A stretch of 64,000 bases of DNA, from the sequence record ON528737. The stretch is one strand, 5' to 3'. Made by a program: the position numbers and the translations under genes. The notes under the pieces were generated by a model. That model was not told the DNA's origin, made no database searches, and worked only from the letters and a program-made list of their open reading frames with translations. Below, piece by piece: positions 2,746 to 49,388 of this stretch (position 1 is the stretch's first letter; every line of letters starts with the position of its first letter). The DNA comes from Shigella phage ESh27.

Positions 2746-3525
2746 TTAAATCCAGGAACCATAGATCGTGCCTGTTGCACCCCATGACGGTGAACTTCCG
2801 AATACTGCTCTGCCAGGAGCACCGCCACCAGATCTAGATAAGTGATTACCCCATCCATCTCCGCCCCGACCTCCAGCATCGCCGCCATTGCCTCCGCCGA
2901 ATTGGGAAGTGTAACCGGCGCCGCCCGGGGCGTCATAACTAGCATTACCACCCGGCCAATTAACACCACCGCCACCGAGACCAAATGGTCTGCCACCGCC
3001 ACCACCAGCTGTAGCATTTGGCGCCCAGCTATTCTGTAATGACACTGCACCACCACCGCCACCGCCTGATGCAATAACGCCATAGTTCCAAATACGAAGT
3101 CTTCCGCCGATATCATTTTGGATTACATCGCCGCCATTTGTGCCTGGGTTTCCGTTTACAGTACCGTTACCACCTCGTCCCCACATATGAACACCGCCGT
3201 GAATATTCAAAGTGACATATTCGTTAGGAGTATCACCATACATGAAGAATAAAGGAACGTCTTTAGAATATGATACCAAATTTCCGGTGATATTAAACAC
3301 TATAGGCGCACTACCTGCCTCAAAACATCTATCTCGGAACCATTGACCATTGAAGTTATGGTCTGCTCCAAGTGTGTGAATAATTTCTCTTGAGCGACCT
3401 GCAAATTGACTCATCCAGCAAGGAACACCCAATCTTAATTGACCAGCTGCTTGACTCATCCAGCGCTGACCCGTTTCATTTACGGCTGAACTTCCAATCC
3501 AGCCAGGAACTCCAACTACTGCCAT
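2746..3525 (-). CDS. 38: gp38 receptor-recognising adhesin (T2-type, glycine-rich motifs)
   Basis: 259 aa; conserved N-terminus [36 protein letters not shown]-terminal poly-Gly motifs separated by variable segments; lies between 37 and t. Confidence 0.85.
2810..3180 (-). repeat. glycine-rich motif / hypervariable segment array in gp38 adhesin
   Basis: Runs of GGN codons (CC-rich on + strand, e.g. CCACCGCCACCGCC) encoding GGGGGG, GGGGG, GGGG, GGGNGG blocks separated by short variable segments. Confidence 0.8.
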
Positions 3526-3561
3526 AATTTATACTCCAAAGGGGGCATTTCCCCCTTGTTG

Positions 3562-6500
3562 TTAGAATTTAAAATATTTACTAATTTTGCGAGCAATTTT
3601 AGTAAAGAGAGGCGTTTTCAATTCTTTAATTTCTTCGCTCATTTCCTGAATGGCCTTAATTAAAAGCGCGTTCACTGCGGAGTTTGAAATTGTTAAAATT
3701 TCTTCTGGGTTATCCTGAGATCCGACACTAGAAGTGCTAACAGCTTCCGGTAATACTTCTTGCAAATCCTGTGCGATAATACCAATCTCATGGCCGATAA
3801 CTTCGCGGTCAGAAAGAGATTTAACTTTATCATAGGTTTTAACTTTGAGTTTATTTACCTTATCCACCGCATTCTCTTCGTAGTCTTCGACATTAATTTT
3901 CAGACGACGGTCAGAACGAATATAAACGTCGTTACAATATACAGCAGCACCAGCAGTAAAATCACCGTTAGATGCAAATGCATAATCACTCCCACCCACA
4001 TGCAATACAACATGAGGATTACCACCGCCAGCATGAACACCCATCGCCGCAAGGTGCTGTTCGCCCCAATGAGTAGCTTTCCAAATGTTATATGCTTGAT
4101 TTCGTGAGTCCTGACAGTCTACCAACAATCCAGCCGGACGGTCTCGCCAGTCTACCCATGCACCACCGGAAATATTACCACGGATAAGAGCGTATTCACT
4201 ATTATATGGAACACGCTCTCCCGCTAGAATCATTGCACCCTGGAAGTGATGACTAAATGAACCACCATGATTATTGTGAATATGTAAAATACCCTCATCT
4301 GTAGCCCAGATAACAGCCTTTTCTGCATCGCTATCATCTCTAAACCAGATATGTCGTGCACCAGTTGAGTTTTTGATGGTTATTCCGTTAGGTCCATGCA
4401 CGGTCAAAGCACCAGCAACATCAAACATCAAACTGTTATCTGTCCTGCGTTCAGCATAGAAGTGATAACCTTTTGAATCGCCGACTTCCAATACTGCCGC
4501 GCGACCAACTTCTGAATTTCCCCAATTGTTGATAGAGAATCGTTCAGAGCTATTATTCATCTGATTTAGGTATAATGTACCATCAGTGAATGTTTCGCCA
4601 AAGAAACGAGTTTTAATTGCACCTGTCGCTAAAGTACGTTCAGTGGAAAAATGAGCGCCTTGACTATCTTCTAACTGGATGATGTTATCACGACCATTAT
4701 TACTATCACCCCAATGGTTAAATTTAAAATAATCTCGTGATCCTAAACGTCCCGGGTCAAAAGTCATCACGCCTTTCATGTTAATATCACCGCTGACCAG
4801 AACGTTATCTGGGAAGTTAACAGTACCGTCTTGATTAAAACGAGACGCATGGCCTTGTGAACCATCTTCTTTCAGATGATGAATAACGAATGTACCTGAT
4901 TCAATTTCGGTACCTAAAGACCAAACGGATTTACCGTTTAAAAACTTCTGTTTAACAATAGGATAATATTTGCTTACAGCGTCATCATCGATTTCCTGGA
5001 AAATAGGAGCCGCTTGAACATATTGAATGTCATAACCGCCGGCACCCGCTCCATGACCAACAAATTTAATATAGCCATTCGCAGCAAACGTATTGTAACT
5101 TGATTGTAAATCTGGAATAGTAACTTTACCGGTATCTAAAGCCATACTAAACGGGCGAAGTGGACCGATATCACCATGTTTACCTTCACCATAAGCAGTT
5201 GGAATAATATGAAGACTGCCTTCTGAACGTCTAAAAATGGCTCCATAATCTGCGTTCCAAATACGAAGAGCATTCACTGCTCCAGATGAAATTTCACCTG
5301 TTGTGTGAACTCCTCTATCTCCAGCAGTAACACCAGATGATTCAAATGAACCATTAACGTTCATTTCTACTTCGCCAGTAGTAAGTCTTTGAATATAGCT
5401 CATCCAGCTAGTTGCATCAGAAATTTCCATAATGTTTTTACGGATACCTCCGCTTGGATCAACAAACGTATTACCCCAAACTTTAATATCCATATTATCA
5501 ACCGAGCTGTATCCTGTTGTGTTGCCTCTAAACATTAGTGTAGAAGAATTATTTCTACCATCTATATTAACAGAACCACCAATAACGTCAATATTACCAG
5601 GAGTAACTAACAAACCGCCATGAGTATTAATGTTTGTGGTACCCTTGCCGCGGAAATAATGATGATAGTTACCGCCTTGATAATATCCTAAAAGAGTTTG
5701 ACCATCGCCGTATGCGTTATTATCATGGTAAGTAACAACAGTGGCCAAAGCATAGTTTTCTGTCGGTGGCGTTGTCATAAGAAGCCCATCTGGAGAATAA
5801 CCCATAACCATTTTTCTAAGGCTTTGTGTTTCCGCAGGACCGTAAATGAAAGTTTTTGTTCCGTTGTTTACTGTATGGAAATATCCATCCTGATGCCACT
5901 TAAATCCGGTATCATTATCACCAAGAACAATTGAGGCCGTTCCTAATTCAGAATATCCTTTTGGACCACCTGGAAGACCTACAGCGATAGAATGACCGGC
6001 TTTCAATCCACCGGACCAGGTAAACGACCAAAGATAAGTGTCTAAGCCATCTCCGGAATACCAGGTTATTCCGTCATTAACATTAACTTCGTGGAAAATA
6101 CCTGCTCCTACAGCATTTCGCATAACACGGAGGTGGTTAATAGCCGTTTCGCTTTCTGCCAATGGAGTGTTATTTGATAATGAATAGATGTCATAATCGC
6201 CTGTCTTCTTCCCATTTGTAATAACTTTGTCGGTCAGAATTTGTGGAGACGAAATAGATTTCCATGCTGATACTTCAGGTGAAGTAAATAGTCCACTGCC
6301 CGAAAATGCATAGGTGCTTTCATCACCAGCGGCGTAGTCTTGAACCCTGATATTAAGTACTTGTGTAGTTAAACCATCATTAGCCGGGGCATAAATGATT
6401 CCACGTTCGCGACTATTGTTATCGAAAAAACGAACATGTGCTGTACCTGAACTTTTTGTAATAAGTTCACCGCCTTCAGTCATAATCTGCCCAGCGGCAA

Positions 6501-15871: not shown

Positions 15872-15900
15872 AGACTTATCAACAACATGAGGAAATCAAA

Positions 15901-16293
15901 ATGGAAATCGGAAAATCTTATATCATTAACCCTTTATTTAAAGACGACTTTGTTCAAGAAGCACCACACAATAACGCTAAGATGTTAAAATTGATTGAAC
16001 TCCATGGGCCTAGTTTTGTTGTAAACGGAATGGAACCTGATTATGATAGCGATACGCCAAACGTAGTAAGTGTAACTATGGAAGATGGTACTGTATGTTC
16101 TGCCGCTGGTGAAATTGAAACTTATTTTGAGATTTATCCTGACGAGTTCAAATACTTTACTGAGGTAGATTTAGTAAAGCCTCAACCTACTAACGAAGGT
16201 ATAACTTTAGGTGTAACAAAAATCCATTGTATCGTAGATGAAACCAACGTCGACGAAATCATCGAACTTTTGCAAAAAACTTTTAAAAAGTAG
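15901..16293 (+). CDS. hypothetical protein (130 aa; frd-upstream accessory ORF)
   Basis: ORF track; own early promoter at 15843-15871 and purine-rich leader. Confidence 0.5.
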   Translation: MEIGKSYIINPLFKDDFVQEAPHNNAKMLKLIELHGPSFVVNGMEPDYDSDTPNVVSVTMEDGTVCSAAGEIETYFEIYPDEFKYFTEVDLVKPQPTNEGITLGVTKIHCIVDETNVDEIIELLQKTFKK

Positions 16294-16355
16294 TGTATAA
16301 TCAGATAGGGTTATGTTATAGTAGCCCTATCAAATCAAAAGTGAAGGAGAATAAA

Positions 16356-16604
16356 ATGAGATTACAACGTCAGAGCATCAAAGATTCTGAAGTTAAAGGT
16401 AAATGGTATTTCAACATCGTTGGTAAAGACGCTGAACTCCTTGAACAAGCTGAAGAAGCTTTACGTGAAATGGGTTGGAATGAAGAATGTGATGGATGTC
16501 CACTCTACGAAGACGGCGAAAGTGCAGGATTCTGGATTCACCACTCTGACGTTGAATCGTTTAAAGCCGATTGGAAAGTTGTTAAGAAAAATCTGAGGAA
16601 ATAA
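16356..16604 (+). CDS. hypothetical protein (82 aa)
   Basis: ATG 16356 preceded by GAAGGAGA SD; the track's longer start at 16293 lacks an SD. Confidence 0.45.
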   Translation: MRLQRQSIKDSEVKGKWYFNIVGKDAELLEQAEEALREMGWNEECDGCPLYEDGESAGFWIHHSDVESFKADWKVVKKNLRK

Positions 16605-16606
16605 AA

Positions 16607-17194
16607 ATGCTTAAATTAGTATTCGCGTGTGCTCCGACTAAAACAGTTGATGATAAACTGGAATATGCTTTTGGATTAGGTGATGGGCTGCCATGGAAGC
16701 ATATCAAACAAGATATGAGTAACTTTGTTGCTCGCACTAAAAACACTGTAATGGTTATGGGTGCTAAGACTTTTGCATCATTACCTCGTCTACTCCCAGA
16801 TCGTACTCATGTGGTTGTCACTGATATGGCCAGAAAACTGCCTAGGACTAAAACTGATGAACTTGCACGGTTCTATATCACCCAAGCAGAATTTATTACC
16901 TTGGTAATGGGTAGTGAAATTAACTTGTTAAGCCCTTCAACCGACGTACCGTTTAAACTTTCTACTGAACATGTCGATGTCTCGGTTATCGGCGGTCCTG
17001 CTCTACTTAAACAAGCATTGCCTTATGCTGATGAAATTGTTATGACTAAAATCATTAAGAAATGTCGTGTTAATTCAGACGTTCAACTTGATAAAGATTT
17101 CATCCAAGATATTATGCTTCAACGTTCTATGGTAGAATCTCATTACTACAGAATCGATGAACTCACCGAAATTACTGAGAGCGTATATAAATGA
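16607..17194 (+). CDS. frd: dihydrofolate reductase
   Basis: 195 aa; position directly upstream of td with ATGA overlap; T4 frd is 193 aa. Confidence 0.9.
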   Translation: MLKLVFACAPTKTVDDKLEYAFGLGDGLPWKHIKQDMSNFVARTKNTVMVMGAKTFASLPRLLPDRTHVVVTDMARKLPRTKTDELARFYITQAEFITLVMGSEINLLSPSTDVPFKLSTEHVDVSVIGGPALLKQALPYADEIVMTKIIKKCRVNSDVQLDKDFIQDIMLQRSMVESHYYRIDELTEITESVYK

Positions 17195-18051
17195 AACAAT
17201 ACCAATACCTGATTAATGATATCCTAGAAAATGGCTACGAAACAGACGACCGTACAGGCACAGGAACAATTGCCCTGTTCGGAACTAAATTACGTTGGGA
17301 TCTGACTAAAGGATTCCCTGCAGTAACAACTAAGAAATTAGCATGGAAAGCTTGTATTGCCGAGTTACTGTGGTTCATGTCAGGTTCTACTAATGTTAAT
17401 GAATTACGTCTTCGTACTCATGGTAGTCTAATTGAAGGTAAAACTATTTGGGACGATAATTACGAAAATCAGGCAAAAGACCTTGGTTATCATAGTGGTG
17501 AACTTGGTCCTATATATGGTAAACAATGGCGTGATTTCGGTGGTGTGGACCAATTAGTTGAAACAATCGACCGTATTAAAAAATTACCAACTGATCGCCG
17601 TCAAATTGTTTCTGCCTGGAATCCGGCCGAAATAAATCAAATGGCTCTTCCTCCTTGCCATATGTTCTATCAGTTCAATGTGCGTAATGGTCATCTTGAT
17701 TTACAATGGTATCAACGCAGTGTAGATGTTTTCTTGGGCCTGCCGTTCAACATTGCCTCGTACGCTGCCTTGACGCATATTGTGGCTAAGATGTGTAATC
17801 TTATCCCGGGTGATTTAGTGTTCTCAGGCGGCAATACGCATATCTACAGCAACCACGTAGAGCAATGCAAAGAAGTTTTACGTCGTGAACCTAAAGAGTT
17901 GTGTTCTCTTGAAATTAATTGGCCTAGTAATTTTGAGAATTGGCCTACAAAAATCCAAATGGACTGGGTTACTGGAACGATGACACATTCTGATTTCGTT
18001 CTTAAAAATTACGAATCACATCCAGCTATCAAAGCTAAAATGGCGGTATAA
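17191..18051 (+). CDS. td: thymidylate synthase (uninterrupted, no intron)
   Basis: 286 aa continuous ORF; TGTGT..FG, active-site PPCH, full-length ThyA architecture. Confidence 0.95.
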   Translation: MKQYQYLINDILENGYETDDRTGTGTIALFGTKLRWDLTKGFPAVTTKKLAWKACIAELLWFMSGSTNVNELRLRTHGSLIEGKTIWDDNYENQAKDLGYHSGELGPIYGKQWRDFGGVDQLVETIDRIKKLPTDRRQIVSAWNPAEINQMALPPCHMFYQFNVRNGHLDLQWYQRSVDVFLGLPFNIASYAALTHIVAKMCNLIPGDLVFSGGNTHIYSNHVEQCKEVLRREPKELCSLEINWPSNFENWPTKIQMDWVTGTMTHSDFVLKNYESHPAIKAKMAV

Positions 18052-18052
18052 A

Positions 18053-18307
18053 ATGATTTTACGTTTTATTAATTCATATGGCACCACAATTTTTGAAATG
18101 AAAAATCCAAGTGAACTGGATATCCCTTCACCAAATAGTGAAATCACAGTTAAAGGTGAACGATTCGTTTGTTATTCACATGAACGAATTTATGAATATC
18201 GTGAATTTTGTGGTGGATTCGGTATGGAAAAAGAACCATTGGTTTATTTCGATATCACGGTCTTGACTCCTAAAGAATACAAAGAAATTATTGCTAAGAA
18301 TAATTAA
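18053..18307 (+). CDS. hypothetical protein (84 aa)
   Basis: ORF track; between td and nrdA. Confidence 0.45.
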   Translation: MILRFINSYGTTIFEMKNPSELDIPSPNSEITVKGERFVCYSHERIYEYREFCGGFGMEKEPLVYFDITVLTPKEYKEIIAKNN

Positions 18308-18330
18308 CGCTTCAGTTTAAAAGTGTATAA
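18304..18330 (+). promoter_or_regulatory. possible middle promoter upstream of nrdA (imperfect MotA box)
   Basis: TAACGCTTCA (one mismatch to TGCTT core), 11-nt spacer, -10 TATAAT. Confidence 0.3.
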
Positions 18331-18394
18331 TAAATTAACGGGATAAATACTATCCCGTTTGGAGTAATGTCTATCAACCTATACCGAGGAATAT

Positions 18395-20650
18395 ATGCAA
18401 GTAACTAAGAGCAGTGGGGTATCCCAAAATTTTGATGCACAGAAAATTATTCAAGTATTAACTTGGCAATGTGAAGGAACACAAATCGACCCATATGAAT
18501 TGTACGAAGAAATTAAGACCCATCTTGTTGACGGGATGAGCACCAAAGATATTCAGAAGATTTGTATTAAAGTTGCAGCCAACTCGATTTCTGTCGAAGA
18601 ACCTGATTATCAATATGTTGCCGCTAAAGGATTAATGTTTGCACTTCGTAAAGATGTGTACGGACAGTTTGAACCTCCTGCTTTTATCGACCATATCTCG
18701 TATTGTGTTAATGAAGGCAAATACGACCCTGAGTTGTTGTCTAGATATTCTGCAGAAGAAATCATTTATCTCGATTCTCAGATTAAACATGAACGAGATT
18801 TTGATCTGACTTATGCTGGTGCTATGCAGCTTAAAGAAAAATACCTGGTTAAAGATAAAACAACTGGGAAGATTTATGAAACTCCACAGTTTGCTATCAT
18901 GGCTATTGGTATGGCCTTACATCAAGACGAAACTCATGACCGTTTGAAACATATTATTCGTTTTTATGATGCTGTTTCTACTCATCAAGTTTCATTGCCT
19001 ACCCCAATTATGGCAGGTGCTCGTACTCCAACTCGCCAGTTCTCTAGTTGTGTAGTTATTGAAGCCGGTGATTCGTTAAAATCTATTAACAAAACTTCAG
19101 CATCAATTATTGAATATATTTCTAAACGAGCTGGTATTGGTATCAACGTTGGTATGCTTCGTGCAGAAGGTTCTAAGATCGGTACGGGTGAAGTTCGACA
19201 TACGGGTGTTATTCCGTTCTGGAAACATTTCCAAACTGCAGTAAAATCTTGTTCTCAAGGTGGTATTCGTGGTGGTGCTGCTACGGCGTATTATCCGATG
19301 TGGCACTTAGAAGTAGAGAACCTGTTGGTTCTGAAAAATAACAAAGGTGTGGATGAAAACCGTATTCGACATATGGACTACGGAATTCAGATTAATGACC
19401 TTATGATGGAACGCCTTGGTAAAAATGATTATATTACTTTATTTAGCCCTCACGAAATGTCAGGCGAACTATATTACTCATTCTTTGAAGATCAAGATAA
19501 ATTCCGTGAGCTTTATGAGAAAGCTGAAAAAGACCCAACAATCAGAAAGAAAAGAATCAAAGCACTAGAACTCTTTGAATTGTTCATGACTGAACGTTCT
19601 GGTACTGCTCGAATTTATCCACAGTTTGTTGATAACACGAATAACTACACTCCGTTTATTCGTGAAAAAGCTCCAATTCGTCAGAGTAACTTATGCTGTG
19701 AAATCGCTATTCCAACTAATGATGTGAATGGTCCTGATGCTGAAATTGGTTTATGTACGCTGTCTGCATTCGTGCTAGATAACTTTGATTGGCAAGACCA
19801 AGACAAAATTAATGAGCTCGCTGAAGTCCAGGTACGTGCATTGGATAATCTATTAGATTATCAAAGCTATCCTGTTCCTGAAGCTCTGAAGGCTAAGAAA
19901 CGTCGTAACTTGGGTGTCGGTGTGACGAACTATGCTGCATGGTTAGCTTCTAACTTTGCTTCATATGAAGACGCTAACGATTTGACTCATGAATTGTTTG
20001 AGAGATTGCAATATGGCCTTATCAAAGCTTCAATCAAACTCGCCAAAGAAAAAGGACCTTGTGAGTATTATTCAGACACTAAATGGTCTAGAGGCGAATT
20101 ACCTATCGACTGGTACAATAAAAAGATTGACCAAATCGCAGCCCCGAACTACGTCTGTGACTGGGAAGAACTTCGAGCTGAACTCAAAGAACATGGAATT
20201 CGTAACAGTACACTTAGTGCTCTCATGCCATGCGAATCAAGCAGTCAAGTCTCAAATAGCACAAACGGTATAGAACCACCTCGTGGACCTGTAAGTATTA
20301 AAGAATCTAAAGAAGGCAACTTCCGTCAGGTTGTTCCTAATATCGAACATAACATGAGTCTTTACGACTACGCGTGGAAACTTGCTAAGAAAGGTAATAA
20401 ACCTTATTTGACCCAAGTTGCTATCATGTTGAAATGGGTGTGCCAATCTGCTTCTGCTAATACTTACTATGACCCGGCAGTATTTGAGAAAGGTAAAGTG
20501 CCAATGTCAGTAATGCTTGACGATCTGCTTTACTTCTGGTACTTTGGCGGAAAAAATCTCTACTATCATAACACTCGTGATGGGTCAGGTACAGATGACT
20601 ATGAATTAGAAACACCTAAAGCCGAAGATTGCTCTGCTTGTAAGCTTTAA
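18395..20650 (+). CDS. nrdA: ribonucleotide reductase class Ia large subunit
   Basis: 751 aa; ATP-cone N-terminus, active-site region NLCCEIAIP, C-terminal redox Cys pair (CSACKL). Confidence 0.95.
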   Translation: MQVTKSSGVSQNFDAQKIIQVLTWQCEGTQIDPYELYEEIKTHLVDGMSTKDIQKICIKVAANSISVEEPDYQYVAAKGLMFALRKDVYGQFEPPAFIDHISYCVNEGKYDPELLSRYSAEEIIYLDSQIKHERDFDLTYAGAMQLKEKYLVKDKTTGKIYETPQFAIMAIGMALHQDETHDRLKHIIRFYDAVSTHQVSLPTPIMAGARTPTRQFSSCVVIEAGDSLKSINKTSASIIEYISKRAGIGINVGMLRAEGSKIGTGEVRHTGVIPFWKHFQTAVKSCSQGGIRGGAATAYYPMWHLEVENLLVLKNNKGVDENRIRHMDYGIQINDLMMERLGKNDYITLFSPHEMSGELYYSFFEDQDKFRELYEKAEKDPTIRKKRIKALELFELFMTERSGTARIYPQFVDNTNNYTPFIREKAPIRQSNLCCEIAIPTNDVNGPDAEIGLCTLSAFVLDNFDWQDQDKINELAEVQVRALDNLLDYQSYPVPEALKAKKRRNLGVGVTNYAAWLASNFASYEDANDLTHELFERLQYGLIKASIKLAKEKGPCEYYSDTKWSRGELPIDWYNKKIDQIAAPNYVCDWEELRAELKEHGIRNSTLSALMPCESSSQVSNSTNGIEPPRGPVSIKESKEGNFRQVVPNIEHNMSLYDYAWKLAKKGNKPYLTQVAIMLKWVCQSASANTYYDPAVFEKGKVPMSVMLDDLLYFWYFGGKNLYYHNTRDGSGTDDYELETPKAEDCSACKL

Positions 20651-20705
20651 GACTTTTGATTATAATTTACTCATGGATGAGTTAATAACTAAGTGAGAAA
20701 ATATA

Positions 20706-21881
20706 ATGAGTACAGTTTTTAACACGCAACAAGTCGATGTTTTGAATGAACCGATGTTCTTTGGTTCTGGTCTTGGCCTCGCACGGTATGATATTCAGCG
20801 TCATAAAGTTTTCGAAGAACTTATTGAAAAGCAATTGTCGTTTTTCTGGCGCCCAGAAGAGGTAAACTTGATGTTGGACTCTGCGCAGTTCAATAAGCTT
20901 CCTCAGTTCCAACAGGACATCTTTACAAACAATCTTAAGTATCAATCATTATTAGATTCTATACAAGGCAGGGCCCCATCTGCGGTACTTATGGCACTTA
21001 TTTCTGACCCTTCATTAGATACATGGGTTGCAACATGGACATTCAGTGAAACTATTCACTCTCGTTCATATACTCATATTATGCGAAATCTTTATACCGA
21101 TCCATCTAAGGTATTTGATGAAATTGTATTAGACGAAGCAATCATGAAACGAGCTGAATCAATAGGTAAATATTATGATGATGTTCTAGTCAAGACTCGC
21201 CATTGGGAAAATGCTAAGGAAAATTATGAGTATTCACTAGGCTCATGCCAGCAGAATGATATTGAGATGTACGAAGAAATAATGTTTAACGCCAAGCGTG
21301 AGCTAATGAAATCTCTTTATCTCTGTTTGCACGTTATCAACTCCTTAGAAGCTATTCGTTTTTACGTATCATTTGCATGTACTTTCAACTTCCATAAAAA
21401 TATGGAAATTATGGAAGGCAATGCAAAGATTATGAAGTTCATTGCTCGTGACGAACAACTCCACCTTAAGGGTACTCAGTACATTATCCGTCAACTTCAA
21501 TCTGGTACTGACGGCGATGAGTGGGTTCAAATTGCTAAAGAATGTGAACAAGAAGCAGTTGACATTTTTATGGAAGTAAATAGTCAAGAGAAGGAATGGG
21601 CTGCGCACCTCTTTAAAGACGGTACATGTCCAGGTATAAATACACAGAGTATGTGTGCTTTTGTTGATTACTTGACTGTGTCTCGTATGAAACAGTGTGG
21701 TTTGCCGTGTCCAATTACTGATGCTCCGACCAAACATCCGTATCCTTGGATTCGTGAATATCTGAACTCTGATTTAGTTCAAGCAGCTCCTCAGGAAGTT
21801 GAAATCAGTTCTTATCTTGTTGCACAAATTGATAATGATGTAGACCAAAATGTAATCAATTCATACAAAAAATATTTCTAA
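20706..21881 (+). CDS. nrdB: ribonucleotide reductase class Ia small subunit (uninterrupted)
   Basis: 391 aa continuous ORF with di-iron/tyrosyl radical family layout; follows nrdA. Confidence 0.95.
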   Translation: MSTVFNTQQVDVLNEPMFFGSGLGLARYDIQRHKVFEELIEKQLSFFWRPEEVNLMLDSAQFNKLPQFQQDIFTNNLKYQSLLDSIQGRAPSAVLMALISDPSLDTWVATWTFSETIHSRSYTHIMRNLYTDPSKVFDEIVLDEAIMKRAESIGKYYDDVLVKTRHWENAKENYEYSLGSCQQNDIEMYEEIMFNAKRELMKSLYLCLHVINSLEAIRFYVSFACTFNFHKNMEIMEGNAKIMKFIARDEQLHLKGTQYIIRQLQSGTDGDEWVQIAKECEQEAVDIFMEVNSQEKEWAAHLFKDGTCPGINTQSMCAFVDYLTVSRMKQCGLPCPITDAPTKHPYPWIREYLNSDLVQAAPQEVEISSYLVAQIDNDVDQNVINSYKKYF

Positions 21882-21885
21882 GGAC

Positions 21886-21907
21886 GGGACTTCGGTCCCA
21901 CTTTATT
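21886..21907 (+). terminator. stem-loop (weak terminator) after nrdB
   Basis: GGGAC-TTCG-GTCCC followed by ACTTTATT. Confidence 0.45.
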
Positions 21908-22318
21908 ATGAAAGATATTGCCGCCGAATATTCCTTTATTAAATATATAGAATTGGAGCTATTAGAAGATGCAACAATTAAAACCATTGATGCCCCTAAT
22001 AAGAAAAATGTCATATACGCTATTGCTATAGATGACGAACTTGTGTATATTGGTAAAACCAAGAATTTAAAGAAACGCATTAACTATTATCGAACAGCCA
22101 TAAATCGAAAAGACCAGACTTCAGATTCAAGAAAATCACTTATGATTTTGGATGCCTTAATGCAAGGCAAAAAGGTTGAATTCTGGGCCCGCCAATGTTT
22201 TGACCTTTCAGTCACTAACGAACTCGGTTCAATGACCATTGCAACAATGGACCTTGAAGAACCGCTTTTTATCAAAAAGTTCAACCCGCCTTGGAATATC
22301 CAACATAAGAAAAAGTAG
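21908..22318 (+). CDS. denA: endonuclease II
   Basis: 136 aa (T4 EndoII 136 aa); GIY-YIG-like core VIYAIAIDDELVYIGKTKNLKKRINYY; follows nrdB. Confidence 0.88.
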   Translation: MKDIAAEYSFIKYIELELLEDATIKTIDAPNKKNVIYAIAIDDELVYIGKTKNLKKRINYYRTAINRKDQTSDSRKSLMILDALMQGKKVEFWARQCFDLSVTNELGSMTIATMDLEEPLFIKKFNPPWNIQHKKK

Positions 22319-22347
22319 TTTACATACCACAAGGATTGTGGTACAAT
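22318..22347 (+). promoter_or_regulatory. early sigma70-type promoter (rnlA)
   Basis: -35 GTTTAC, 18-nt spacer, -10 TACAAT. Confidence 0.5.
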
Positions 22348-22363
22348 TTAAAAAACTAACTGA

Positions 22364-23497
<1,134 letters not shown>

Positions 23498-47938: not shown

Positions 47939-48682
47939 TTACCTTAAACGGCCTTTAACATATCCATCTGGGATGGATAACGGATTTACTAATTTATTTA
48001 TAGCCCCGTTATTTACCCATATTCTGCCGGTGGTCGTAGGTTTTACTTCACAACCCTTTCTAGATTTTCTATTAAGTTGGACCATTCCTTTTACAAATCC
48101 TTCAGGCATCGGGTCCTCGGCTGATATAAATCTGTTTTCTTTACCGTTGTTAACACAAATTTTATTTAGAGTTGTAGGATTTTTAGGACCTTTAATTTTA
48201 TCAATCTTTGGCTTTCCTGTACCATACCGCCCGTGGCATGTTGGGTCTTCAGAGTATCGACGTTTATTTGTTTCAGATAGTTTTCTTTTTGTTTCTTCCG
48301 ATCTGTGTTTTCCTAAAAGATTATGACCAAGCCTCTTTATTCGTTCTTTAGCACTATTAGACATTTTAGTCTTATCAGCTTCGGTGTACTTATACCTTCC
48401 ACCTTCACCGCCTTGGCGCATATTATAATACTCGTTAGATTTGACCAAATCCTCTGTTACTAACTGAGCTTCGTATTCTAAAGCTTCAGCGGAAGTTTCA
48501 AATTGTTTAATTATTGAACGTTTAAATGATTCTTCTCCGTATTTTTTGATAGCGCGATTTAAGGCAACACCTGACCCTAGATACGAATCATTTAAATTTT
48601 CTGTAGAATGTTTGCCAATGTACTTTTTACCATTGATTAAATTTACGGTCTCATAAACAAAGTGATACATACTCTTTTCCAT
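47939..48682 (-). CDS. GIY-YIG homing endonuclease (Seg-like, SegE-position)
   Basis: N-terminal YHFVYETVNLINGKKYIGK (GIY-YIG variant), NUMOD-like HSEETKRKLSE repeats, C-terminal RIWVNNG; alternative start at 48670. Confidence 0.75.
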   Translation of the reverse strand: MEKSMYHFVYETVNLINGKKYIGKHSTENLNDSYLGSGVALNRAIKKYGEESFKRSIIKQFETSAEALEYEAQLVTEDLVKSNEYYNMRQGGEGGRYKYTEADKTKMSNSAKERIKRLGHNLLGKHRSEETKRKLSETNKRRYSEDPTCHGRYGTGKPKIDKIKGPKNPTTLNKICVNNGKENRFISAEDPMPEGFVKGMVQLNRKSRKGCEVKPTTTGRIWVNNGAINKLVNPLSIPDGYVKGRLR

Positions 48683-48698
48683 GTAATAAATATAGTTA

Positions 48699-48706
48699 TA
48701 TTTATA
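48699..48706 (-). promoter_or_regulatory. late promoter TATAAATA (Seg-like endonuclease)
   Basis: Reverse-strand TATAAATA 17-29 nt upstream of the candidate start codons. Confidence 0.45.
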
Positions 48707-48719
48707 ATGAGGAAATATC

Positions 48720-49388
48720 ATGATCGATAAAGACTATATTGAAGAGTTACGTGCTCTTTCTGATAAAAAGGAAGCCAAAGCTAAACTGTTCGAATATGCG
48801 AAACAATTTGGCATTAGTGTTAAGAAAACAAAATCATTCGATAATATTGTTATTGATATCGAAGAAGCTCTTAACGCACTGGCTGATGAACCGTTACCTG
48901 AAACTGATGGATTATCTATTACTGATTTAATTACTGCCGCAGATGATGTGGACGGTGTTAATTTCACCAACGAAGAAGTTAAAGAAGAAGCTATTCTGTT
49001 GTTTGATTCTCCAACAGAACAAGTTGAAGTATTAGAAGTTGTCGAACAAGAAAAAGAATTCGACCATGATAAATTTGAAGAAGCAATTACTCAGGTTGTT
49101 GAATCTGAAAAGGAGCCTGAGACAGAGGTAAATAAAGAAGTAAAATTTGTTCTGCCTGAAAATTTTAGTCCTACACTCATTAAATTAGGCAAAGGCCTAG
49201 GATATGTTACTGTTCCTTGGTGGATTTATCAATGGATAGCCGAAACACCTGATTGGAAATCTCGCCCAACCAGTTTTGTGCACGCTTCTGCTCACCAAAC
49301 ATTATTTAGCTTAATTTATTATATTAATCGCGATGGATCAGTTCTAATTCGTGAAACTCGTAATTCTTCTTTCATAACATTAAAATAA
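48720..49388 (+). CDS. inh: putative Inh (inhibitor of prohead protease), by synteny
   Basis: 222 aa, acidic; immediately upstream of hoc as in T4. Confidence 0.5.
   Translation: MIDKDYIEELRALSDKKEAKAKLFEYAKQFGISVKKTKSFDNIVIDIEEALNALADEPLPETDGLSITDLITAADDVDGVNFTNEEVKEEAILLFDSPTEQVEVLEVVEQEKEFDHDKFEEAITQVVESEKEPETEVNKEVKFVLPENFSPTLIKLGKGLGYVTVPWWIYQWIAETPDWKSRPTSFVHASAHQTLFSLIYYINRDGSVLIRETRNSSFITLK

Follow-up and report, generated by a model that had tools for sequence, protein, structure and literature searches.

In T4, td carries a group IA intron of 1017 nt and nrdB one of 598 nt, and the locus analysed here raises the question of what it means when the same two genes are uninterrupted in a T4-type phage. 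The original prediction was that td (286 aa) and nrdB (391 aa) are each a single ORF in this phage and that the empty sites could serve as homing targets. We consider it about 90% probable that the locus is a plain, uninvaded Mosigvirus frd-td-nrdA.2-nrdA-nrdB-denA cluster, whose empty intron sites are unoccupied alleles and presumptive homing targets.

To place the phage, we compared the window (the whole 64-kb stretch of DNA that was analysed) with its relatives. Positions 16600-22400 are 97.5% identical to phiC120 and 95.8% identical to RB69, with colinearity across the full 5.8 kb, and the whole window is colinear with phiC120 except for two small indels. As both phages are classified in Mosigvirus according to their taxonomy lines, sequence similarity assigns the window to a Mosigvirus, i.e. 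an RB69-like T4-type phage. Every gene in the stretch 16607-23497 is on the + strand in the ORF list, and the cluster runs frd-td-nrdA.2-nrdA-nrdB-denA-rnlA. The features of the locus, together with a free-standing endonuclease gene elsewhere in the window, are:

16607-17194, + strand, frd
17191-18051, + strand, td, thymidylate synthase, 286 aa, uninterrupted (ORF, Pfam PF00303, colinear with the T4 exons)
17713-17755, + strand, empty td intron site (-27 to +16), equivalent of the I-TevI homing site (junction alignment)
18053-18307, + strand, nrdA.2-like small ORF, DUF5496, 84 aa (Pfam PF17600; annotated as nrdA.2 in RB69)
18395-20650, + strand, nrdA, large subunit of ribonucleotide reductase (RNR), 751 aa, uninterrupted (ORF list, Pfam)
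20651-20705, + strand, nrdA-nrdB intergenic spacer, 55 nt, without mobE or nrdB.1
20706-21881, + strand, nrdB, class Ia RNR small subunit, 391 aa, uninterrupted (ORF, Pfam PF00268, T4 alignment)
21334-21403, + strand, empty nrdB intron site (-45 to +25) (junction alignment)
21908-22318, + strand, denA, endonuclease II, GIY-YIG fold, 136 aa (Pfam GIY-YIG, phmmer, RB69 annotation)
22373-23497, + strand, rnlA
47939-48721, - strand, SegE-like GIY-YIG homing endonuclease gene, free-standing, 260 aa, flanked by uvsW and inh (Pfam)

The ORF list reproduces the predicted coordinates and lengths of td and nrdB exactly. RB69 and phiC120 share the gene order, the uninterrupted td and nrdB, and the 55-nt spacer between nrdA and nrdB with the window, from which they differ in this region by point differences only; both lack the Seg-like endonuclease gene that the window carries elsewhere. 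The genes of T4 are orthologous and identically ordered (Td 82% and NrdB 86% identical), and the T4 insertion positions can be mapped onto the window to the nucleotide. T4 differs from the window in the two introns and in mobE and nrdB.1, which the T4 annotation places between nrdA and nrdB and which are both absent from the window. Promoter and terminator scans of 16500-22500 gave nothing above shuffled expectation, and a repeat scan of the same region gave no structure of interest.

The Td translation matches the Thymidylat_synt profile PF00303 over its whole length (positions 1-266 of 266; 325.3 bits against a cutoff of 24.3, E = 3e-97) and contains ALPPCHMFYQF, with the P-C-H motif around the catalytic cysteine; we take PPCH to be the catalytic cysteine motif of the thymidylate synthase family. 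When td was aligned with T4 by blastn, nt 1-548 fell on exon 1 and nt 550-861 on exon 2, with nothing between them, and the protein is identical to spliced T4 Td at 235 of 286 positions, both being 286 aa long. The insertion point lies between 17739 and 17740, that is, between codon 183 (GGC) and codon 184 (CTG). The target of I-TevI spans ~38 bp, with cleavage 23/25 nt ahead of the insertion site (PMC2988022). Within the cleavage motif CAACG, positions C1 and G5 are critical (5'-CNNNG-3'), and the enzyme is sequence-tolerant (PMC5009752). In the window, CAACG is found at 17713-17717 (-27 to -23), identical to T4, and supplies 5'-CNNNG-3' at the distance (23-27 nt upstream) from the insertion site at which it is required. 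Over -27 to +16, the site has 7 mismatches to T4 in 43 nt and three differences from the spliced exon context of two intron-carrying Mosigviruses, ECO111 5-P and vB_EcoM_G2469 (hereafter G2469). Across the td junction, a stretch of 300 nt matches the intron-less phage ESh15 at 100% identity.

The NrdB translation matches the Ribonuc_red_sm profile PF00268 (127.9 bits against a cutoff of 33.6, positions 9-271 of 281, E = 6e-37), and the diiron ligands and the radical tyrosine are found in FSETIHSRSYTHI and ARDEQLH. The former is presumably the iron-ligand/tyrosyl-radical motif, residue roles being assigned after E. coli NrdB. The blastn alignment with T4 places nrdB nt 1-671 on exon 1 and nt 674-1139 on exon 2 and leaves no unaligned insert. 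Of the 391 residues, 336 are identical to spliced T4 NrdB, and the difference of 3 aa from the T4 protein (388 aa) is due to short indels in a hypervariable loop (~aa 172-198) that differs among all relatives. The insertion point is between 21378 and 21379, within the Cys225 codon (between T and GT), and the site carries 10 mismatches in 70 nt to T4/RB3. I-TevIII cleaves at -14/-16 (PMC1865063), which corresponds to positions ~21363-21365 in the window. At 37 nt upstream of the insertion site, the window has a nonsynonymous change of its own, Ala to Ser (VINSLEA).

These alignments also bear on whether td or nrdB might conceal an overlooked intein, or an overlooked intron that is degenerate or lacks an ORF. 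Partial-coverage matches show that ORF-less, short td and nrdB introns do occur in some relatives, and Rfam at its gathering threshold is blind to introns of this kind: it gave no match in the window, but it missed the T4 introns likewise. Since the negative at this setting is uninformative, we dropped it as evidence and used scans in E-value mode with positive controls. In this mode, RF00028 (Intron_gpI) detected the T4 td intron (40.3 bits), the T4 nrdB intron (35.7 bits) and the nrdB intron of the Mosigvirus FL31 (35.4 bits), but gave no match in 16000-23000 at E<=10 and no group I match in the entire 64-kb window at E<=0.1. The alignments to the T4 exons leave no room for an insert either: those of exon 1 and exon 2 abut in both genes, with no non-coding insert at the known intron sites, the Pfam profiles are covered without gaps, and the protein lengths (286 versus 286 aa, 391 versus 388 aa) differ only in the known variable loop. 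A hidden intron or intein is ruled out by the alignments, and we give the idea practically no credence. Chance is of no concern here, since td and nrdB are full-length conserved enzyme genes. Thus, td and nrdB are confirmed as contiguous, intron-free genes, in agreement with the original prediction on the ORF list, Pfam coverage and T4 exon alignments alike. The alignment to the T4 exon junctions that it had proposed places both insertion points and finds both empty, and neither alignment nor RF00028 revealed an in-frame insertion or a ribozyme-like sequence in either gene. The presence of introns with endonuclease ORFs in both T4 genes, the other half of its comparison, agrees with the T4 annotation, though I-TevIII is annotated there as a defective, truncated copy.

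It has been clear since the late 1980s that the td and nrdB introns occur sporadically across T-even-type phages; the key survey of their distribution is reportedly that of Sandegren and Sjoberg 2004 (JBC), cited through PMC2993671. We asked how common the uninterrupted state is with queries across the two sites. A 300-nt query across the td site matched 1248 phage records, in which the junction is uninterrupted in 796 and split in two places in ~192, while a 160-nt query across the nrdB site matched 1277 records, 1034 of them uninterrupted and ~115 split; queries with the intron sequences matched 260 records for td and 129 for nrdB. All of these counts are rough, because the collection includes duplicates, partial records, and ORF-less introns. 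RB69 was reported in 2006 to have no group I introns (PMC1524935), and T4 has been described as the outlier (PMC2988022). The comparison with T4 makes the absence of introns look notable, yet T4 is the outlier and most relatives are uninterrupted. Uninterrupted td and nrdB are the usual and already documented state in T4-type phages, with T4 as the exception.

Some Mosigviruses have nonetheless been occupied at these positions. ECO111 5-P, G2469, and FL31 share a ~95% identical backbone with the window and differ from it in their occupied alleles. In ECO111 5-P and G2469, td is interrupted by a 1016-nt intron exactly at the position that is empty in the window; the protein it encodes, a homologue of I-TevI, shares 88% identity with the T4 enzyme, and the intron itself is 99.8% identical to the td intron of phage TuIa and 90% identical to that of T4. 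No T4-type co-conversion tract was found around this intron, the exons being Mosigvirus-type throughout, and this TuIa-type intron therefore seems to be resident in the lineage rather than a recent import from T4. G2469 has an nrdB intron besides its td intron.

FL31 presents a different picture. Its nrdB contains a 1091-nt RB3-type intron at the position that is empty in the window, and its I-TevIII is identical to that of RB3 at 268 of 269 residues. With 143 diagnostic sites, at which Mosigvirus nrdB differs from T4/RB3 nrdB, we mapped the origin of the flanking exons and found FL31 nrdB to be T4/RB3-type only at nt 483-704 (window equivalent 21188-21409) and Mosigvirus-type elsewhere. This tract of ~220 nt spans the insertion point, and its hypervariable loop matches RB3 at the protein level. 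It is the pattern expected of homing with co-conversion of the flanking exon, and a Mosigvirus nrdB allele like that of the window has evidently been invaded in nature. The close relatives thus document apparently recent intron homing from Tequatrovirus to Mosigvirus, with a sharply bounded co-conversion tract.

The introns are not the only optional inserts of this region. NHEP36 has a 115-aa ORF without a Pfam match between frd and td, which is absent from the window. In ECO111 5-P, an insertion of ~680 nt between the equivalents of 18359 and 18416, upstream of nrdA, holds a 215-aa ORF that contains an HNH-like motif, HHIIP, and matches I-TevI_DNA-bd and NUMOD3 weakly, below threshold; unlike ECO111 5-P, the window has no endonuclease gene upstream of nrdA. 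With the mobE position between nrdA and nrdB, three further optional endonuclease slots are empty (frd/td, upstream of nrdA, and nrdA/nrdB). Of the optional mobile inserts known in the frd-nrdB cluster from its genus and from T4, the phage has none and is all-empty: both introns are missing, as are mobE, the ORF between frd and td, and the endonuclease-like one ahead of nrdA. The third intron host of T4, nrdD, lies outside the window, and no anaerobic RNR appears in the syntenic annotation of phiC120.

Two explanations would give the empty sites a different history. According to one, they are empty because they are resistant, synonymous drift having blocked cutting by I-TevI and I-TevIII, so that the phage would be immune and not merely not yet invaded. 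The divergence of both sites from T4 (7/43 at td, 10/70 around nrdB) and the private Ala to Ser change near the nrdB site are in its favour, as is a possible evolutionary pressure against colonisation (PMC2988022). However, the critical CAACG motif is intact, I-TevI tolerates sequence change (PMC5009752), the exon context of the intron-carrying Mosigviruses is only three positions away from the td site of the window, and in FL31 a Mosigvirus nrdB was actually invaded. We consider resistance unlikely, and some of the 7/43 td or 10/70 nrdB site changes could reduce or abolish cleavage.

The other explanation is that an ancestor had the introns and lost them precisely, e.g. by recombination with an intron-less relative. 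The introns are polymorphic within Mosigvirus, so the genus must both gain and lose them, and the life-cycle model of homing endonucleases includes a loss step (PMC2988022). On the other side, the exons at both sites are Mosigvirus-type, without the T4/RB3-type conversion tract seen in FL31, and the td junction is the same as that of intron-less ESh15 over 300 nt. On balance, the evidence is neutral between precise loss and a site never invaded and does not distinguish the two; we regard precise loss as improbable, slightly more so than resistance.

We return to the uninvaded Mosigvirus cluster as the preferred reading. The genes are contiguous, contain no ribozyme, and have Mosigvirus-type exon flanks. 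On this basis, td and nrdB would be ordinary contiguous genes translated without splicing, and the junctions at 17739/17740 in td and 21378/21379 in nrdB would represent unoccupied alleles of the T4 intron positions. If an intron-carrying relative infected the same cell, cleavage would be expected from I-TevI, 23/25 nt upstream of the td insertion point, or from I-TevIII, 14/16 nt upstream of that in nrdB; repair of the double-strand break on the donor template would then bring in the intron along with some of the exon sequence beside it. A known parallel is provided by intron-less recipients of the T2 type, which were used in the classical T-even homing crosses: when they are co-infected with T4, their td and nrdB alleles undergo conversion at high frequency (PMC2790892, PMC2988022). 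T2 is, however, a Tequatrovirus with sites nearly identical to those of T4, whereas the sites of the window are more diverged. Genetic isolation between T4 relatives has been discussed (PMC2993671), and RB69-type and T4-type phages are partly mutually exclusive, which would leave fewer opportunities for homing. It is plausible that the empty td and nrdB sites are candidate homing targets, a view backed by the natural examples in the same genus. We would put at even odds the broader proposal that the phage is a natural all-empty recipient whose sites may be live targets for cross-genus exon transfer, including that of the hypervariable NrdB loop.

In itself, the absence of the introns has little significance: no other state is more common, and intron-free RB69-type genomes had already been reported. 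The analysis has practical by-products. It gives a nucleotide-level map of both insertion points in this genome, it points to a phage that might be used as a clean recipient for homing crosses, and it brings out FL31 as a clear natural case in which an RB3-type nrdB intron and its flanking exon appear to have moved into a Mosigvirus gene.

Finally, we examined the GIY-YIG genes of the window, since the original prediction also held that the phage has a free-standing endonuclease of this family elsewhere. A phmmer search with I-TevI, I-TevIII, MobE, and the FL31 endonuclease, combined with a GIY...YIG regex, found only DenA among the window ORFs of at least 50 aa. The ORF concerned, 21908-22318 beside nrdB, was rejected as a homing endonuclease; it is DenA/endonuclease II (phmmer E = 2e-73 against T4 DenA), and the RB69 annotation likewise calls it denA. 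This search missed the Seg-like gene, which was found as a ~740-nt insertion relative to phiC120 and then confirmed by Pfam, so that the free-standing gene at 47939-48721 (- strand) exists as predicted and is distinct from denA. It scores 29.7 bits with SegE_GIY-YIG (cutoff 25) and 25.8 bits with GIY-YIG (cutoff 22.6). A NUMOD-type DNA-binding module is typical of Seg-type endonucleases, and the ORF has a sub-threshold hint of NUMOD3 (17.1 bits against a cutoff of 20.4). Its GIY-YIG domain and its presence in some phages and absence from others mark it as a putative Seg-type homing endonuclease. RB69 and FL31 match only a 43-nt edge of the gene, which is rare, being full-length in only 10 of the 141 matching records, e.g. 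in p000y at 99.9%.

The nrdB gene of the Mosigvirus FL31 (PP400782), whose equivalent in the window is uninterrupted, contains the following element:

5281–6371 of the FL31 locus L002, RB3-type intron in nrdB with intact I-TevIII, the endonuclease of the nrdB intron.

Its insertion site is flanked by a sharply bounded co-conversion tract of the T4/RB3 type, which covers about 190 nt on the upstream side of the site and 30 nt on the downstream side (equivalent to 21188–21409 in the window) and has swapped the hypervariable NrdB loop of FL31 for the RB3 version. The intron and its tract are a natural cross-genus homing footprint.

The window sequence next to the corresponding empty site has a feature of its own. 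NrdB of the window carries a private Ala-to-Ser change, reading VINSLEA, compared with VINALEA in 7/7 compared phages; the intron site of nrdB follows 37 nt downstream of the change (window 21300–21345, nrdB residues ~200–212). A database search with 160 nt spanning the window site found no identical record, the top match being 97.5%. Separately, nrdB of the RB69 reference (NC_004928; 4407–5579 of locus L009) differs from that of all other Mosigviruses: 3 nt are deleted near nt 130, and near nt 760–880 there are two indels, −1 and +1, that compensate each other. These differences resemble old sequencing errors or a short segment read out of frame.

In td, identity between the window and its intron-less relative phiC120 (L005) is lowest, at 92–93%, in the two 60-nt bins across the homing site (phiC120 region equivalent to window 17671–17790), and is 95–100% over the rest of the gene. 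The phiC120 site has CAAAG in place of CAACG, the I-TevI cleavage motif, and 10/43 mismatches to T4. The low identity at this position could be due to chance, or to divergence driven at the homing site.

Comparison of the window with its relatives revealed further inserted genes:

3287–3934 of the ECO111 5-P locus L003 (OR844765), 215-aa ORF between nrdA.2 and nrdA.
1092–1439 of the NHEP36 locus L004 (PQ511151), 115-aa ORF between frd and td.
47939–48721 of the window, minus strand, putative free-standing SegE-like GIY-YIG homing endonuclease gene between uvsW and inh.

The 215-aa ORF contains the HNH-like motif HHIIP and matches I-TevI_DNA-bd and NUMOD3 weakly, below threshold, and it overlaps and alters the start of nrdA, giving a protein of 754 aa with a different N-terminus; its site is empty in the window (18359–18416). 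The 115-aa ORF, for which Pfam gave no match, is also missing from the window, in which the frd and td genes share 4 nt; the NHEP29 sequence is longer by a comparable amount. Compared with phiC120 and RB69, the SegE-like gene is an insertion of ~740 nt, and full-length copies were found in only 10 of the 141 matching phage records, including p000y (99.9%) and vB-Eco-KMB38 (99.6%). The other indel between the window and phiC120 genomes is at ~15878–15903, where about 240 nt of phiC120, in the interval from gene 32 to the frd.x ORFs, are missing from the window.
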